63,424 nt of DNA. Origin: an uncultured Gemmatimonadales bacterium (lineage in GTDB: Bacteria > Gemmatimonadota > Gemmatimonadetes > Gemmatimonadales > GWC2-71-9). The notes under the pieces are model-generated. The model did not search any database. It had not been told where the DNA came from and saw only the letters and a program-made list of their open reading frames with translations. Where the stretch lies: positions 1-63,424 of the forward strand of contig CAWJMT010000006.1 in assembly GCA_963844035.1 (NCBI GenBank), written 5' to 3'. This document shows, one piece after another, positions 35,838-63,424 of the stretch (positions are counted from its first letter, which is position 1; every line of letters begins with the position of its first letter). The position numbers and the translations under genes are program-made.

Positions 35838-36950
35838 CTAGACGGGAGCTTGGGGTCCACCACCCAGGAGGGTGGGATCCTGACCACGAAACCGGGGGGG
35901 GTGGAGAAACCGGTCCTGGTGGGACATGGCCGGGGTGTATTGGCGAATGTGCGGCAAGCTCGTCTCGACGCAGGCAGTCTGGAACGCCGTGGAGGCTCGG
36001 GTGAGCAGGTCCTGAGCCCGAACCCGGGTGGCACCCGCGTCGTCCACGGCCTCAAACCCTCCCCGCACCTTCACCGGCGGCACATCCGAGCCCGCGGGTG
36101 TGCGCGTCTCAACCAGCCACGCGAGCCGCTGCGCCAGCCGTGCAGCCCCGATCGCCCGGGTGCCGGGAGCGAGTACCGCGAACTCCGTCTCGCTCCAGCG
36201 CCCGATCACATCCGACAGGCGGCCGTGGTTGCGGAGCACTTTCGCAACGTGCTGCAGCACGCGCGCTCCACCGGGCGTATCCTGCTCAGGACTGGGGTCA
36301 ACGCCGAGCACGACGCATGCAAGTGACTGGTGGTGCCGCTCCGCCTCGGCCAGCAGCTCGCGCGCCCGGTACTCGATACCGCGCACCGCGTAGAGCCCGC
36401 TGACGGTGTCGAGCAGCCCGTCCGTGCGGGCCCGGTCCGCCTCCACCTTCACGCTCACGAATCCGTCGATCCTGGCGATCAGCTCCTGCGCGTTCAGCGG
36501 GAACGCCAACACGTCCCAAGCGCCGGCACGCAGGCCCGCGACGCGATGCTCGACCAAGGCAGGGGCGCCGGAGACGATGATAATCGGCGTCCCCGCCGGA
36601 ATGGTCGCGTCCTGACGGAGTCGGCGGCACGTCTCGACGGCATCGGCCTGGGGTGACCCGACGAGAATGATGTGCCACTCGCCCCCGGGGCCGACCTCCG
36701 GGGCAGGCGCGTCATCGGCCGCCTGCACCACGTCGTAGCCGGCCGGTGCGAGGATGCTCTCCAGTGCGCCCCCGCACCACTCGTCTGCCCCGACAATGAG
36801 CGCACGCCGAACGGAGGGCCGCGGTTGGTGCGAGCTCAGGATCTCTCCCCAGGCAAAAAGGGTGGTACGTGACGACGGCGCAGCGCGGGCGCGCAGCCGA
36901 TAGACACTCCGTGGGGGAGCGGCTCGGCGAGGAGAGTCGCTGATACTCAC
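35838..36950 (-). CDS. Pseudo-receiver + degenerate GGDEF protein; ends uncertain
   Basis: REC-like fold lacking the Asp (IILVG) and Lys (AFP); DTVSGLY...RLSDVIGRWSETEF. Confidence 0.8.
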   Translation of the reverse strand: MSISDSPRRAAPPRSVYRLRARAAPSSRTTLFAWGEILSSHQPRPSVRRALIVGADEWCGGALESILAPAGYDVVQAADDAPAPEVGPGGEWHIILVGSPQADAVETCRRLRQDATIPAGTPIIIVSGAPALVEHRVAGLRAGAWDVLAFPLNAQELIARIDGFVSVKVEADRARTDGLLDTVSGLYAVRGIEYRARELLAEAERHHQSLACVVLGVDPSPEQDTPGGARVLQHVAKVLRNHGRLSDVIGRWSETEFAVLAPGTRAIGAARLAQRLAWLVETRTPAGSDVPPVKVRGGFEAVDDAGATRVRAQDLLTRASTAFQTACVETSLPHIRQYTPAMSHQDRFLHPPRFRGQDPTLLGGGPQAPV

Positions 36951-41050: not shown

Positions 41051-41986
41051 GTGCAGACAAAGATGGGCCCCGCTCGCCCGGCGGTGGTTCTCGTCGCGAG
41101 CAAACAGGAATGGACCAGCCGCTCGCTCGAGAGCATTCTTGCTCCCAGCGGTTACGTCGTCCTCGCGAGCTACACGGCGCAAGGCACGCTGCTCCGCGCC
41201 AAGCGCGACCAGCCCGATGCGATCATCGTCGACGCGCACCTTCCCGACTCGAGCGGCCACGACCTGTGCAAGCGCTTGCGCTCCGAGGGACTGATCACGC
41301 CCAGCACGCCGCTCCTCGTCACCCTGCCCAAGCCCGCGACCCGGCGCGACCGGTTGGCCGCACTCCGTGCGGGCGCCTGGGAGTGCCTGAGCGAGCCGTT
41401 CGACGCGGAGGAGACCCGCGCCATCCTGGACGCGCTGGTGCCGGCCAAACTCGATGCCGACCAGGCGCGCTCCGAGGGTCTGATCGACGATGCGACGGGG
41501 CTCTACAATATTCGGGGGCTCACGCGCCGGGCCCGCGAGCTCGCCTCGCACGCCACCCGCACCCGGGCGCCGCTCGCCTGCGTCGTCCTCGCCCCCGAGC
41601 CGAATCCCGACTCGACGCCGGCCAGCGGAGAAACGCCCTGGCCGGTCGTGCGGCAAGTCGCACGGCACCTGAAAGCGACCGGGCGGCGCTCCGATGCGAT
41701 CGGACGCCTTGGGGCCGGTACGTTTGCCGTGGTTGCGATGGATACCAATGCGGGACAGGCGCGCCAGCTGGCGAGCCGCTTGTGCGACGGGCTTCTCGCC
41801 GCGAACGAGACCGGATTCCAGATGCACGCCGGGTGTCACGGCGTGAGCGACTTCCATGCGGCGTCGATCGACGCCGTCGAGCTGATGTTTCGAGCGACCG
41901 CCGCGCTGCGACAGGCGCGGACCGATCCCGCCGGTGGCTGGCTGCGGGACTTCGAAGACAGCGACGCCCGGCCCCGCCCCGCCTAG
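41051..41986 (+). CDS. Pseudo-receiver + degenerate GGDEF protein (paralogue of 35838-36950)
   Basis: REC-like (VLVASK, IIVD, LSEPF); DDATGLYN...RRSDAIGRLGAGTF. Confidence 0.85.
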   Translation: MQTKMGPARPAVVLVASKQEWTSRSLESILAPSGYVVLASYTAQGTLLRAKRDQPDAIIVDAHLPDSSGHDLCKRLRSEGLITPSTPLLVTLPKPATRRDRLAALRAGAWECLSEPFDAEETRAILDALVPAKLDADQARSEGLIDDATGLYNIRGLTRRARELASHATRTRAPLACVVLAPEPNPDSTPASGETPWPVVRQVARHLKATGRRSDAIGRLGAGTFAVVAMDTNAGQARQLASRLCDGLLAANETGFQMHAGCHGVSDFHAASIDAVELMFRATAALRQARTDPAGGWLRDFEDSDARPRPA

Positions 41987-58032: not shown

Positions 58033-59948
58033 ATGCGCCGAGGGTTCGCCGGGGCGCTCGTGGCCCTGCTCGCGCTGAGCGCGTGCGTGGACCACGAGAC
58101 CGCGGGGCCCGACATCAACGCGGGACGCGCGGTGCTGTCGATACGGGCGAACGTCGCCGGTACCGCCGTCGCGATGGTGGTGGTCGAGGTCACGGCACCC
58201 GACATCGCGACGCCGGTCGTCACGAACATCGCGACGGTCGGAGGTGTCGCCGACGGCGCCATCAGTGTCCCCGCGGGCTCGAATCGCACCATTACGCTGC
58301 GCGCCTATGATGCGGGCGGCGTGCAGACGCACACCGGATCAGCCACCCTCAACGTCCAGGCCGGGACGAACCCGGCCATCTCCATCGTGCTGGCGCCCCT
58401 CGCGGGGAGTGTGCCGATCACCGTGACGCTGGGAAGCTTCAAGGTGACGGTGACGCCGGCCACGGCCACGCTGGCGGCCGGAGACACGCTGCACCTCACC
58501 GCGACGGTGCTCGACGCCACCAACAACCCGGTCGCGGATCAGGTCACGTGGGCCACACTCGGGGCGAGCGTGGCCACGGTCGTCAGCACGGGACCGCAAA
58601 CGGCCCGCGTCACCGGCAGTGGGATCGGGACAGATCACGGTGGTCGCCGTGTATGGCGGAATCGCCGGGTCGGCGACGATCACCGTCCACACGACCGGCG
58701 GCACTGTACCCGGTCCACGTGGAAGCGGGCAAGCGCTACCTGATCGACGCCCACGGGAATCCGTTCTTGATGCAGGGCGATGCCGCCTGGTCCCTGATCG
58801 TGCAGCTGACCAACGAGCAGGCCGAGCAGTACCTCGAGGATCGGCGGCAGAAGGGGTTCAACACGGTGCTCGTGAACCTGATCGAGCACGAGTATTCCGC
58901 CAATCCCCCGAAGAATGTCTACGGCGACGCGCCCTTCCTCACGCCGGGCGACTTCTCGACACCCAATGAGGCGTACTTCGCCCACGCCGCATACGTGATC
59001 AATCTGGCGGCCCAGAAGGGCATGCTGGTCCTGCTCACCCCCGCCTACATGGGCGGCGGCGGAGGGTCCGAGGGCTGGTATCAGGAGATGGTGGCCAACG
59101 GGACGACGAAGCTGAGCAACTACGGGACCTACCTGGCCAATCGGTTCCGGTTCTACGACAACATCGTCTGGGTCGAGGGCGGCGACTACGACCCACCCGA
59201 CCTCAACCTGCTGCGCGCGATTCCCAACGCGATCCGCGCGGTGGAGCCCGAAGTGGCTGCACACCTTCCACGGGTCCCGAGGCACCTCGGCCCTGGGCTT
59301 CGCTGGGTCGCGGTGGAGCCCTGGCTGCAGCTCAACGACATCTACACGGACAGGACAGACGTCATCGCCAACGCCTTCCAGGAATACGGGCGCTCGACGA
59401 TGCCCTTCTTCCTGATCGAGGCCATCTACGAGAATGAGAATGGCGCCGGCGAGTGGACGGTGCGGCAGCAGGCCTATCAGACGGTGCTGTCAGGGGGCAC
59501 GGGGCACGATCATGGGCAATCGCCCGATCTGGCTCTTCGACACCGGCTGGCAGCTGGCACTCGATAGCCCCGGCGCGCAAGCATCGCTCGCGCACCTCCC
59601 GGCGCTCCTGGCTGGCCGCGCCTGGTGGACGATGGTGCCGGACACCAATCACACCGTGCTCACCGCCGGCGTCGGCACCGGAGCCGACGAGGCCGCGACC
59701 GCCCGGGCTAGCAACGGCTCGTTCGTCCTGGCGTACTTGCCCAGCGCGCGCGCTGTGACGATCAACATGGCACAGCTCAGCGGCCCCAACGTGGTCGCCC
59801 GCTGGTACGATCCCACCAACGGCGACCTACACGCCTGTCGCCGGCTCGCCCTTCGCGGCGAGCGGGTCCAGCAGTCTTCCCATCGGCCGGAGCGAACAGC
59901 AACGGGGACGACTATGACTGGGTGCTGGTGCTGGAGTCCTCGCCCTAA
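58033..59948 (+). CDS. Lipoprotein: Big_2 + DUF4038 (apiosidase/GH140-like) + collagen-binding-like C-terminus, frameshifted
   Basis: Lipobox LSAC; RYLIDAHGNPFLMQGDAAWSL, YLEDRRQKGFN, PNEAYF, IVWVEGGD, FFLIEAIYE, ARWYDP, DWVLVLE. Confidence 0.78.
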
Positions 59949-60003: not shown

Positions 60004-60046
60004 CGTGTTATGGGTCACCGACCCAAATCCACACCGCGGCCATCTT
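60004..60046 (+). promoter_or_regulatory. CRP/FNR-like box plus -10-like CATCTT (class II geometry)
   Basis: CGTGT-TATGGG-TCACC at 60004-60019; CATCTT at 60041-60046; block conserved at 62419-62462. Confidence 0.45.
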
Positions 60047-60059
60047 TGCACCCAGAGCA

Positions 60060-60151
60060 CGCTGCCTCAGAGCATAGCCGCCGAAAGGCGGTGACGCAGA
60101 GCCACGGGGCTACCGCGAGCCACGCTCGCCATGTCCGCCGGGCCGCCAGCG
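60060..60151 (+). ncRNA. GEMM-I (c-di-GMP-I class) riboswitch aptamer, A20 variant
   Basis: P1 CGCTG/CAGCG; P2 GCCGCC-GAAA-GGCGGT; GACGCAGAGC junction; P3 with CTAC...CATG receptor-like motif; ends GCCGGGCCGCC; 5' of a Big_2 gene. Confidence 0.85.
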
Positions 60152-60190
60152 ATCGACGAAGCTCAACCCACGTCGAATGGTGGCCTGACG

Positions 60191-62325
60191 ATGACCTTCA
60201 AACACAAGCTGTCGCGTCGACTCGCCTCCATGAGGGGTGCGCCATGGCTCGTTGCATCCACCGTCGCGCTCGGGTCGTGCGAGGTGCCCATCGCCACCCC
60301 CACTGATCCAAGTCACCAGGTCGTCCAGGTCGTCGTCGTCCCCGAAAGTGTCAGCGTCGATCCACTGCAACAGATGAAGTTTGCGGCCTATGGCCGCACC
60401 GCGCAGCGGCGACAGCTCGGCTGTCACCGTCACCTGGAGCGCAACCGGCGGCCAGCATCACGCCCGACGGAATGTTCGCCGCCGATACCGCGGCCGGAGA
60501 CTTCGTGGTCTCGGGTGCCAGCGCCCCGCTCCAGCTTTCGGCGTCTTCACGGGTACGCGTCCGGCAGCGCGCCGTCGCAACGGTGAGCGTGAGTCCGGCG
60601 TCGGCGAGTGTGCCAGCCGGGCAGACGGTGCAGCTCACGGCGACCCCGCGGGATGCGAGCGGGAACGCGCTCACGGGCCGGGTCGTGACGTGGGCCAGCA
60701 ATAGCACCGCCGTCGCGACGGTGAGTGGCGAGCGGGCTCGTGACCGGCGTGAGCGCCGGGTCGGCGACGATCACGGCCACGAGCGAAGGGAAGAGCGGCA
60801 CGGCGGCGGTCACCGTGACGTTGGCGCCGGTCGCGTCGGTGAGCGTGAGTCCGGCGTCGGCGAGCGTGGCGGCGGGACAGACGGTGCAGCTCACGGCGAC
60901 GCCGCGCGATGCGAGTGGCAACGCGCTGGCCGGGCGGGTGTGACTTGGGCGAGCAGCAACACGGGCGGTGGCGACCGTGAACGGCAGCGGCCTGGTGACC
61001 GGCATCGCCGTCGGGTTGGCCACGATCACGGCGACGAGCGAGGGGAAGAGCGGCACCGCGGCGCGTCACCGTGGTGCCGGTCGCGTCAAACGCGGCCTTT
61101 CCGCTCCACGTGGATGCGGGGAAGCGCTACCTGGTCGACGCGCAGGGGAATCCCTTCCTGCTGCGGGGCGACGCCCCGTGGTCGCTGATCGTGCAGCTGA
61201 CCAACGCAGAAGCCGAGCAGTACCTCGAGGATCGGCGGCAGAAGGGGTTCAACACCGTGCTCGTGAACCTGATCGAGCACCAGTTTTCCGCCAATCCTCC
61301 GAAGAATGTCTACGGCGACGCGCCCTTCCTCACGCCGGGCGACTTCTCGACGCCCAACGAGGCGTACTTCGCCCACGCCGCCTACGTGATCAATCTGGCG
61401 GCCCAGAAGGGCATGCTGGTCCTGCTCACCCCCGCCTACATGGGGGCCGGCGGAGGGTCCGAGGGCTGGTATCAGGAGATGGTGGCCAACGGGACGACGA
61501 AGCTCAGCAACTACGGGACCTATCTGGCCAATCGCTTCCGGGCCTACGACAACATCGTCTGGGTCGAGGGCGGCGACTACAACCCGCCCAACCTCACCCT
61601 CCTGCGCGCCATTCCCAACGCGATCCGCGCGGTGGAGCCCGAAGTGGCTGCACACCTTCCACGGGTCCCGGGGCACCTCGGCCCTGGGCTTCCTGGGCAC
61701 GGCGGAGCCCTGGCTCCAGGTCAATGACATCTACACGGATCAAACGACCGTCGTGGCCAAGGCCTTCCAGGAATACGGCCGCTCGACGATGCCCTTCTTC
61801 CTGATCGAGGCCATCTACGAGGGCGAGGGTGCCAGCGAGGCGGCGGTGCGGCAGCAGGCGTATCAGACGGTGCTGTCAGGGGGCACGGGGCACGTCATGG
61901 GCAACCGCCCGATCTGGCTGTTCGGCAGCGGCTGGCAAACGGCGCTCAACAGCCGCGGGGCACGCACACTCTCGTACCTCCCGGCGCTGCTGACCGGCCG
62001 CGCCTGGTGGACGCTGGTGCCGGACATCGCTCACACCGTGCTCACCGCCGGCGTCAGCACCGGGAGCGACCAGGCCGCGACCGCCCGGGCGAGCGACGGC
62101 TCGTTCGTCCTCGCGTACCTGCCGAGCGCGCGCTCGGTGACGGTCAACCTGGCGCAGCTCAGCGGCCCCAATGTGGTCGCCCGCTGGTATGATCCCGCCA
62201 ACGGCACTTACGCGACCATCGCCGGCTCGCCCTTCGCGGCGAGCGGGACACGCACCTTCGCATCGGCCGGGGCGAACAGCAGCGGCTTCAGCGACTGGGT
62301 CCTGGTGCTCGAGTCCTCGCCGTAA
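60191..62325 (+). CDS. Lipoprotein: tandem Big_2 repeats + DUF4038 (GH140-like) + collagen-binding-like C-terminus, frameshifted
   Basis: Lipobox LGSC; VSVSPASASV.AGQTVQLTATPRDASGN x2; catalytic module near-identical to 58705-59948. Confidence 0.78.
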
Positions 62326-62418
62326 GGCGCTAAGCCTCGCATCACCGATCGCCCGGCGGGGCGTCCGTTGATCGGTCACGCCGTCCCAGTAAGACCCCCG
62401 ACACATTACCACAACGAT

Positions 62419-62462
62419 CGTGTTGTGGGTCACTGATCCAAACCTCCACTCATCGCCATCTT
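62419..62462 (+). promoter_or_regulatory. Second CRP/FNR-like box plus CATCTT
   Basis: CGTGT-TGTGGG-TCACT at 62419-62434; CATCTT at 62457-62462. Confidence 0.45.
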
Positions 62463-62651
62463 CGCACCCAGTTCTTCGCAAGCAGGTGGCACGCCGATGT
62501 CGATAATCCAGTTGGACGACATCCACACGGGCGATTGGACGCCGCAATTCCTCAGGTATCTTGCGTGCGTCGGCGCGCCACGTGCTCCGCGATGTGCCGA
62601 TCATCGCTTGAGACGGTGCCTAGATCGTAGGTCGGAGTTCTTCAGTACTAC

Positions 62652-62742
62652 CGCTGCCAAGAGCATAGCCGCCGAAAGGCGGTGACGCAGAGCTACGGGA
62701 CTACCGCGAGTCACGCTCGCCATGTCCGCCGGGCCGCCAGCG
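62652..62742 (+). ncRNA. GEMM-I (c-di-GMP-I class) riboswitch aptamer, A20 variant (second copy)
   Basis: Same architecture as 60060-60151; the three stem substitutions only exchange Watson-Crick and G-U pairs. Confidence 0.87.
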
Positions 62743-62748
62743 ATCGAC

Positions 62749-62789
62749 GAAGCGGGAAGCACGTCGAATGGTGGTCCGCTTCTTTTCTT
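62749..62789 (+). terminator. Putative intrinsic terminator in the riboswitch expression platform
   Basis: GAAGCGG (62749-62755) pairs with CCGCTTC (62776-62782), followed by TTTTCTT. Confidence 0.55.
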
Positions 62790-62813: not shown

Positions 62814-63424
62814 ATGACCTTCAGTCGCACGCCGTCGCGTCGTTTCGCGCTCATGCGGGATGCACTGTTACTGCTTGTGTCCGTCTTCGCGTTCGGGTCG
62901 TGCGACACTCCCACTGCCCCACTCCCAGAGTATCGGTGGTACCTACCAGCGTCCCGTCGCAACCGTGCGCGTGAGCCCGACCTCGGCAAGTGTGATGGCG
63001 GGACAGACGGTCCAGCTCACTGCGACCCTGCGAGACGCCTACGGAAACAGACTCACCGGCCGCGTGGTGACCTGGACAACGAGCAATGCGGCCGTAGCGA
63101 CGGTGAGCAATATCGGGTTAGTGACGGGCGTGGCTGCCGGCTCAGCCACGATCACCGCCACGAGCGAGGGGAAGAGCGGGACCTCGGCCGTTACGGTGAC
63201 GGCGGTGCCAGTGGCATCGGTGAGCATGAGTCCGGCCTCCGGCAGTGTGCCGGTGGGACAGACACTCCAGATCACCGCCACCCCGCGGGATACGGGCGGC
63301 AGCGCGCTCACCGGCCGAGTGGTGACCTGGACCAGCAGCGATGCGGGCGTCGCAACCGTGAGCGGCAGCGGGTTGGTGACCGGCGTGGCCGCCGGATCCG
63401 CCACCATCACGGCGACGAGCGAGG
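62814..63424 (+). CDS. Lipoprotein with tandem Big_2 repeats (3'-truncated by window edge, frameshift ~62935)
   Basis: GGGAG RBS; MTFSRTPSRRF...FAFGSC lipobox; GQTVQLTATLRDAYGNRLTGRVVTWTTSN repeats. Confidence 0.8.
   Translation, partial: MTFSRTPSRRFALMRDALLLLVSVFAFGSCDTPTAPLPEYRWYLPASRRNRAREPDLGKCDGGTDGPAHCDPARRLRKQTHRPRGDLDNEQCGRSDGEQYRVSDGRGCRLSHDHRHERGEERDLGRYGDGGASGIGEHESGLRQCAGGTDTPDHRHPAGYGRQRAHRPSGDLDQQRCGRRNRERQRVGDRRGRRIRHHHGDER

Follow-up and report, generated by a model that had tools for sequence, protein, structure and literature searches.

A conserved A20 variant of the c-di-GMP-I riboswitch ahead of surface-lipoprotein genes in an uncultured Gemmatimonadales bacterium

The window analyzed here, all 63,424 nucleotides of contig CAWJMT010000006.1 (C6) from the 3.47 Mb, 83.7% complete genome of an uncultured Gemmatimonadales bacterium, ends with two copies of a riboswitch aptamer of the cyclic di-GMP-I (c-di-GMP-I, or GEMM-I) family, each followed by an expression platform and a gene with a lipoprotein-type leader (Table 1). 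The two genes follow a long exopolysaccharide region, at its far end. A scan of the window against Rfam with cmscan returned exactly two matches, both to c-di-GMP-I (RF01051), at 60061–60150 (E = 3.4e-7) and 62652–62741 (E = 1.9e-8), each above the gathering score of 35 bits and each covering model positions 1–87 of 87. Both elements are real members of a known riboswitch class and represent a conserved variant of it that is new; their genome also encodes enzymes with the signatures of 3',3'-cGAMP (3',3'-cyclic GMP-AMP) metabolism.

Table 1. Riboswitch elements, their genes and neighboring features in the window
Feature	Coordinates	Strand	Details
Exopolysaccharide/capsule region	4756–57211		Sugar transferases, export protein, Wzy, flippase, glycosyltransferases, tyrosine-kinase-like protein, ATP sulfurylase/APS kinase, sugar-modifying enzymes, ABC transporter
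Upstream paralog	58033–59948	+	Lipoprotein, Big_2, apiosidase-like domain (Pfam); no riboswitch match of its own
GEMM-I aptamer, copy 1	60060–60151	+	RF01051, 51.7 bits; A20 60071, A47 60098, G48 60099, C90 60144, C92 60146; P1 CGCUG/CAGCG; fold
Expression platform, copy 1	60153–60190	+	Inner hairpin 60153–60158/60171–60176; anti-P1 strand 60178–60187; no U-tract
Gene under copy 1	60191–62325	+	Lipoprotein-type leader (MTFKHKLSRRLA...LGSC), Big_2 Ig-like repeats, apiosidase-like catalytic domain, Collagen_bind_2 (Pfam on pieces of open reading frame)
GEMM-I aptamer, copy 2	62652–62742	+	RF01051, 56.8 bits; A20 62662, A47 62689, G48 62690, C90 62735, C92 62737
Expression platform, copy 2	62744–62789	+	Inner hairpin; anti-P1 strand 62769–62778; U-tract 62779–62789
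Gene under copy 2	62814–63424	+	Lipoprotein-type leader (MTFSRTPSRRFA...FGSC), Big_2 repeats (E 2.4e-32); ends at contig end

A sequence-only reading of this stretch had proposed two GEMM-I riboswitches within a duplicated element, and on both points it was right: the duplicated stretch measures 115 nt, with 93% identity between the copies. According to the consensus alignment and the predicted fold, both copies have a P1-P2-P3 junction with P2 capped by a GNRA (GAAA) loop. The identification rests on the covariance model, because folding energy by itself falls short of significance in both copies (z = −0.38 and −0.72). Three stem differences said to preserve pairing (C/T at 60103/62694, G/A at 60109/62700 and C/T at 60120/62711) are each compatible with pairing in the predicted fold. 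The junction J1/2 comprises 7 nt in copy 1, one more than the 6 nt of copy 2. Upstream of copy 1, a stretch of about 55 nt (60005–60056) recurs by eye in degenerate form at 62418–62471, about 180 nt upstream of copy 2, and is possibly a duplicated promoter region.

Pocket positions follow the numbering of the Vc2 aptamer; the numbers for G21, C46, A48 and U90 come in part from general background and were checked against the Rfam alignment and the Gs1761 numbering. In both copies A occupies the column that immediately precedes the first P2 pair and corresponds to Vc2 G20, and the ligand-contact bases A47 and C92 are present, so that the Rfam alignment agrees with what had been read by eye. Both copies lack the G20 of canonical, c-di-GMP-selective GEMM-I aptamers and carry the A20 of GEMM-Ib, which corresponds to A14 in Gs1761 (PMC6140456). 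The first P2 pair is G21–C46 in both, as in Vc2, and the C–G pair found there in the selective Gs1761 (C15–G40; PMC6274999) is absent, the latter being a feature of the type example and perhaps not one that defines the family. The nearest measured pocket is that of the Vc2 G20A mutant, which combines A20 with G21–C46 and is bispecific, with values of 53 nM for c-di-GMP and 120 nM for cGAMP given in PMC6140456. In the same source, the natural A20 aptamer Cbe 1-2 is listed with 30 nM for c-di-GMP and 463 nM for cGAMP and Gs1761 with 0.53–70 nM for cGAMP, and the A20 aptamers with binding data presented there all bind cGAMP. These comparisons bear on the possibility that the two elements are cGAMP-selective GEMM-Ib switches as in Geobacter, forming a dedicated regulon with the candidate MASE1-Hypr writer and RxxQ eraser described below and standing apart from that genome's G20 c-di-GMP switches. 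We consider this quite unlikely, considering that the pocket resembles the bispecific one, that its first P2 pair differs from C15–G40 and that lower-P2 changes affect selectivity (PMC9262584).

Position 48 is G, not A, in both copies. To place this feature, relatives were drawn from 151 genomes of the same family and 401 genomes of the phylum; 127 of the 151 have an RF01051 match. The comparison covers 140 elements, namely 137 of the 142 matches listed from other genomes plus three from flanking sequence, with 191 further matches beyond those listed. Among them were 58 A20/G48, 10 A20/A48, 63 G20/A48 and one G20/G48 elements, and eight that the parser did not resolve and that are counted as A48 in the tallies of platforms and of position 90. 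A20 accompanies G48 in 58 of these 59 cases, a fixation that speaks for cGAMP selectivity. The source genome itself has nine GEMM-I elements, five with A20 and four with G20, one of the latter directly behind an A20 copy. We define the subfamily as A20 plus G48–C90 (n = 63, including the source genome's own elements) and compare it with G20/A48 elements (n = 71). C90 is found in 62 of 63 A20/G48 elements (one was unparsed), U90 in 56 of 71 G20/A48 elements, and 62 of the 63 members of the subfamily retain C92. Because C90 goes with G48 and U90 with A48, and because this fits the A42–U73 pair of Gs1761 (PMC6274999), G48–C90 constitutes a compensatory pair and a mark of the lineage. An alternative in which G48 makes a new base contact was rejected, since a compensatory pair in the register of the Gs1761 pair is simpler. 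The strict A20/G48 pattern occurs in 43 of 151 own-family genomes and in 61 of 401 phylum genomes from five families, with no match in the controls; here and below, riboswitch carriers and GGDEF or Ser motifs were detected by fixed-spacing patterns, by which variants can be missed.

Both expression platforms contain a strand predicted to compete with P1. In copy 2 this strand forms 8 of 8 pairs with the aptamer and is followed by a tail with 6 U in 8 nt; the unconstrained fold reaches −73.7 kcal/mol, compared with −64.5 kcal/mol when P1 is enforced. Copy 2 is therefore predicted to be a ligand-ON switch with an intrinsic terminator that buries C92. The anti-P1 strand of copy 1 likewise forms 8 of 8 pairs with the aptamer 3' strand and includes a putative Shine-Dalgarno sequence (GGUGG, 60179–60183), 7 nt before the ATG at 60191, with a duplex energy of −6.3 kcal/mol against the 16S tail of this genome. 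Its predicted unpaired probability is 0.01 in the free RNA and 0.40 with P1 formed, and on this modeling copy 1 is predicted to be a translational ON switch. Without ligand, the downstream strand would pair with the aptamer 3' strand including C92, yielding a terminator in copy 2 and a hidden ribosome site in copy 1, while ligand binding would close P1 first and free expression. Scans for sigma-70 promoters and for short-hairpin terminators gave no match at either copy; the predicted terminator, a long stem in which the aptamer strand takes part, does not fit the pattern that the terminator scan looks for.

The competing strand is conserved in the subfamily. A perfect 8-nt strand pairing with the bases around C92 is found in 37 of 63 members, compared with 1.1 in shuffled sequences and 2 of 71 G20/A48 elements; followed by a U-rich tail (at least 4 U in 8 nt), it occurs in 34 of 63 members, compared with 0.3 in shuffles and 0 of 71. 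This perfect-match test replaced a first terminator test that was dropped as non-specific, the shuffles scoring 47.9 of 63. Furthermore, covariation with the terminator partner is seen for a variable base that lies five positions ahead of C92 (A–U 11, A–C 5, G–C 50, G–U 8 and G–A 1 among 75 scored elements; 7 of 82 were unscored), and all 16 scored elements from other families have U-rich tails. Terminator and aptamer are predicted to be mutually exclusive. The same logic is described for the cGAMP-ON pilM switch of Geobacter (PMC9262584), a match that again favors cGAMP selectivity. Copy 1, having no U-tract and a longer J1/2, might be regarded as a decayed, non-switching duplicate, a reading that belongs to a residual group of explanations to which, even taken together, we assign very little probability. 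Its anti-P1 strand is perfect, and three studies have short-read contigs with the same short platform, one relative's contig covering 60083–60300 gap-free. As these contigs span the short platform, an assembly deletion as the cause of the missing U-tract was ruled out as well.

The suggestion of the sequence-only reading that the targets are surface glycosidases or adhesins agrees with the lipoprotein leaders, Ig-like repeats and apiosidase-like glycosidase domain that were found. The product of the gene under copy 1 matches the apiosidase structure PDB 8T9W (E = 7e-22). In the assembly this gene is spread over several frames; at the one frameshift site checked, 61641, the contigs of relatives are one base shorter, and the frameshifts look like assembly indels. 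Over 1239 nt, the catalytic part of the upstream paralog shares 88.8% identity with its counterpart in the gene under copy 1 (blastn), and no continuation of the truncated gene under copy 2 was found in the other contigs of the genome. In the subfamily as a whole, a leader of the M..F.FKLS type begins the gene after the element in 39 of 63 cases, compared with 2 of 71 G20/A48 elements, and another riboswitch follows directly in 12 of 63. Adhesin-like and exopolysaccharide-linked genes are typical outputs of c-di-GMP, which argues for an explanation confined to that messenger. According to this explanation, the elements are c-di-GMP-only ON switches in the cell, A20 being an old trait that lowers c-di-GMP affinity to a usable range through a protonated adenine, while the Hypr enzyme of the genome signals elsewhere or co-occurs by ancestry or lifestyle. 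We regard it as unlikely, though as the strongest of the alternatives. The Vc2-like G21–C46 pair, the preference of Vc2 G20A and Cbe 1-2 for c-di-GMP over cGAMP in the data of PMC6140456, and the conservation of the subfamily in five families with intact platforms all agree with it.

The source of a second messenger was sought among the 19 GGDEF matches of the source genome, of which 11 have Asp at the specificity site, one has Ser, one has Asn and six lack the site. The 11 Asp-type matches are compatible with an exclusive role of c-di-GMP. Of the checks named in the sequence-only reading, the covariance search gave the matches reported above and the genome search for a Hypr GGDEF enzyme identified the single Ser-type protein, a 468-residue MASE1-GGDEF protein (Pfam) encoded on contig C27. 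Its best PDB match is GacA (6D9M), with Y304, N339, S348 and D374 aligned. The specificity serine lies in a GHLVGS segment aligned to GHLVGS of 6D9M (GacA 348, PleD D344), the signature motif is RFGGDEF, hence GGDEF and not GGEEF, and the cross-dimer residue is not Arg (ANYR aligned to FNYR of GacA, Y304). These residue roles, including the GGDEF-over-GGEEF rule and the non-Arg residue at 304, are those described in PMC6456294. An RxxD I-site is present, and Leu replaces the usual Phe in DxDxF. Judged by these residues, the protein probably makes 3',3'-cGAMP in the source genome, and the complete Hypr signature counts against the c-di-GMP-only explanation, considering that an A20 aptamer meeting cGAMP is expected to bind it. 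Ser is kept in 45 of 80 loci related to this enzyme (11 of the 80 were unparsed), and a Ser-type clade spans Gemmatimonadales and Acidobacteriota with a Shimodaira-Hasegawa-like approximate likelihood-ratio support of 99 in a quick tree, for which this was the only support measure and from which two loci without the domain were left out. The Ser motif is present in all three genomes of the same genus, and contamination is therefore unlikely. The tree also groups with the Gemmatimonadales MASE1 enzymes a large Acidobacteriota clade (L036–L083) with Ser348/GGDEF and Tyr or His at 304.

A candidate for the opposing activity is a REC-HD-GYP protein with intact LHDVG and GYP motifs and RPYQ aligned to RPYK of PmGH. 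Its gene is duplicated on contigs C11 and C25, whose ends, with that of C19, overlap at 93–95% identity; some genes are therefore counted twice in this assembly. In the assays reported in 10.1101/600031, five of six RxxQ/N enzymes degraded cGAMP and three of six appeared selective, and by its motifs the protein is predicted to fit the PmxA-type cGAMP phosphodiesterase signature. It shares HD, GYP and RPYQ with that type, but carries a REC input domain, is near-universal in its own family (118 of 151 genomes) and is not tied to the riboswitch. The writer and eraser signatures in one genome count in favor of cGAMP selectivity. A second HD-domain protein (C12:103055–103546, + strand) has Gln in place of the Lys of RxxK (RTYQ) and retains both the HD and the GYP motif. 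A further candidate for a non-canonical cyclase is a protein with an Fe-S domain (PF04060) and a GGDEF domain (C4:128837–129307, − strand; L329:8820–9977), in which Asn takes the place of GacA S348 and residue 304 is Phe. Its clade is core, occurring in 119 of 151 own-family genomes; the 27 rows inspected have Asn or Ser but never Asp, with no Arg at 304, and none of the 11 genomes carrying the Ser form has the Asn form. A CD-NTase as cGAMP source was dropped, SMODS not being found in the 83.7% complete source genome.

In the own family, the riboswitch and the Ser-type GGDEF co-occur. Of 151 genomes, 27 have both, 16 the riboswitch only, 18 the Ser-GGDEF only and 90 neither, giving an odds ratio of 8.4; Ser-GGDEF is thus present in 27 of 43 riboswitch carriers, compared with 18 of 108 genomes without the riboswitch. 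In the same order, the counts are 12/6/10/50 with one genome per genus, 25/18/9/99 for the MASE1 type alone (sorted by eye) and 29/18/16/104 for own-family genomes in the phylum sample. Across the samples the odds ratio ranges from 8 to 15, and the association holds in own-family genomes new to the phylum sample, where 15 of 23 carriers have the Ser motif; both observations argue against the c-di-GMP-only explanation. As kin are not independent, the P values of this co-occurrence overstate it. The 16 own-family carriers without Ser comprise 15 lacking a MASE1 ortholog and one whose ortholog bears Asn, and 14 of the 16 have the Asn-type enzyme. Neither this Asn-GGDEF nor the RPYQ phosphodiesterase was accepted as co-occurrence support, both being near-universal in the family.

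A20 aptamers and a predicted cGAMP-making enzyme in the same genome make a response to both messengers likely. We therefore favor, tentatively and with slightly less than an even chance of being right, the view that both elements are A20 c-di-GMP-I variants acting as ligand-ON switches for surface-lipoprotein genes and accepting c-di-GMP and 3',3'-cGAMP. In this mechanism the MASE1-Hypr enzyme would write cGAMP, c-di-GMP would be able to damp it through the RxxD I-site, and the REC-HD-GYP(RxxQ) protein would erase cGAMP. A20 would pair with cGAMP's adenine or, in its protonated form, with guanine, which would let either signal act, and the output would be Ig-repeat lipoproteins with glycosidase domains, encoded beside the exopolysaccharide cluster.

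Several observations weigh against this dual view. The own-family association is concentrated in few genera. Outside the family, the Ser motif is found in 1 of 14 carriers and 5 of 220 non-carriers; the 13 carriers without it agree with the c-di-GMP-only explanation. None of the 14 has RPYQ or an ortholog of the Fe-S GGDEF protein. In five carriers that are 95–99% complete, none of 43 GGDEF matches has Ser or Thr with an intact motif, as far as fixed-spacing patterns detect them, and SMODS was found in 2 of 30 riboswitch carriers tested. Since carriers without the Ser motif exist and SMODS is rare, the subfamily seems to work without a recognizable cGAMP source. RPYQ shows no association with the riboswitch in the own family (33/10/85/23, ordered as above), and a D-to-S exchange alone gave no cGAMP from the canonical enzymes in PMC6456294. 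Riboswitches and platforms are intact in the five near-complete carriers, where a cGAMP-selective switch would be useless. A bispecific aptamer explains both facts, as it would respond to c-di-GMP where no cGAMP is made and to cGAMP as a second input where the Hypr enzyme is present. The earlier proposal of cGAMP or dual control is favored in its dual form, whereas a pure cGAMP sensor is disfavored by the Vc2-like first P2 pair and by the intact subfamily in near-complete genomes without a recognizable synthase. The remaining members of the residual group introduced with copy 1, namely a different purine cyclic dinucleotide as ligand or a signal whose synthase went unrecognized, draw on the same carriers without a known cGAMP source, on two DAC-domain matches in the source genome and on the family-wide Fe-S GGDEF with Asn or Ser at the specificity site. 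They share its very low standing: C92, kept almost throughout the subfamily, demands guanine, and c-di-AMP binding is reported for the G20A/C92U double mutant (PMC7288161).

Compared with Vc2 and its bispecific G20A mutant (RF01051; PDB 3MUM and 4YB1 as given in PMC6140456), the window aptamers have the same fold, the A20 of the mutant, G21–C46, A47, C92 and a GAAA-capped P2, but are natural rather than engineered and have G48–C90 in place of A48–U90; they are also predicted to be ON switches, in contrast to Vc2, for which PMC9262584 describes translational OFF switching. With the Geobacter Gs1761/pilM and GacA system they share A at the specificity position, a terminator burying the ligand-pairing C and a Y304/S348/GGDEF synthase in the genome. 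GacA carries a REC domain, whereas the synthase here has a membrane MASE1 sensor. Besides the first P2 pair (G–C here, C15–G40 there), the targets differ, being Ig-repeat glycosidase lipoproteins here and cytochromes or pili in Geobacter, which belongs to a different phylum, and G20 switches coexist here, one of them in tandem. Cbe 1-2 of Clostridium beijerinckii (PMC6140456) and cluster-3 of Desulfobacca acetoxidans (PMC9481103) are described as A20 aptamers of natural origin beyond Geobacter, each accepting both ligands; here, in contrast, a candidate Hypr synthase and RxxQ phosphodiesterase occur in the same genome, and the subfamily is multi-copy with its own platform and target gene family. 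Riboswitch-mediated cGAMP signaling with a known writer is reported for Geobacter, and Hypr enzymes also for Myxococcus and Bdellovibrio, in the sources consulted. If the dual view is true, this messenger serves a different output in an uncultured Gemmatimonadales lineage, namely surface glycosidase/adhesin-like lipoproteins, with MASE1 as a new sensor input. The subfamily also offers a natural experiment on what besides A20 sets GEMM-I selectivity, since near-identical aptamers occur both where a Hypr enzyme is encoded and where it is not, and since a single aptamer is predicted to act on transcription in copy 2 and on translation in copy 1. Our literature search found no report on Hypr GGDEF in Gemmatimonadota, none tying Hypr GGDEF cGAMP to Acidobacteria and none tying Hypr GGDEF to asparagine; Kellenberger 2015, Nelson 2015, Hallberg 2016, Ren 2015 and Smith 2009/2010, with their supplements, lay outside it and may list the lineage. 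Searches for c-di-GMP riboswitches in Gemmatimonadota and for cGAMP in that phylum gave nothing related, judged by title, and eight supplementary files of PMC6456294 have no Gemmatimon, Acidobacter or Cabther entry.

The A20 element with a G20 element directly behind it in the source genome (C2:70736–71035, + strand; A20/G48 at C2:70736, G20 at C2:70944; L030) precedes a lipoprotein gene. The same A20-then-G20 order is seen nine times among 22 elements belonging to this G20 subtype, spread over five genomes (the source genome, G109, G100, G058 and G084), and such a two-ligand pair is absent from Table 2 of PMC9481103. These ordered tandems make most sense with two ligands and in this respect favor cGAMP-selective A20 switches. 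For the G20 elements, P1 formation never makes the ribosome site more accessible in the predicted fold; it makes it less so in 2 of 9 that stand in tandem and in 6 of 12 that stand singly, 1 of the 22 being unparsed. A more far-reaching possibility, which we consider doubtful, is that part of Gemmatimonadales has a complete 3',3'-cGAMP circuit, undescribed for the phylum, with the MASE1-Hypr writer backed by the core Fe-S GGDEF toggling between Asn and Ser, the RxxQ HD-GYP eraser and the A20/G48–C90 reader deploying surface Ig-repeat glycosidases beside exopolysaccharide clusters, and with the A20-then-G20 tandems as two-input cGAMP/c-di-GMP logic gates.

Other GEMM-I elements were noted along the way. 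At L153 and L158 (genome G047, C3:4761–5163 and C36:1983–2385), A20/G48 riboswitches stand three in a row, every one followed by a terminator strand of its own. In the source genome, A20/G48 riboswitches with U-tract terminators at C2:65030 and C2:67735 (+ strand) precede Big_2 lipoprotein genes beside glycosyltransferase-like open reading frames. A separate GEMM-I subtype (GCACACCCGG...) has A20 in some genomes and G20 in others (L164, L214, L244, L249 and source genome C4:363377), which suggests repeated G/A exchange at the specificity base. A G20 riboswitch at C5:42113–42195 (− strand) stands directly before an open reading frame starting MNRKGFTLIELL, which we take to resemble a type IV pilin leader. 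Within the exopolysaccharide region of the window lie two degenerate GGDEF domains, at 35979–36413 (− strand) and 41645–41923 (+ strand), which are possible cyclic-dinucleotide receptors.

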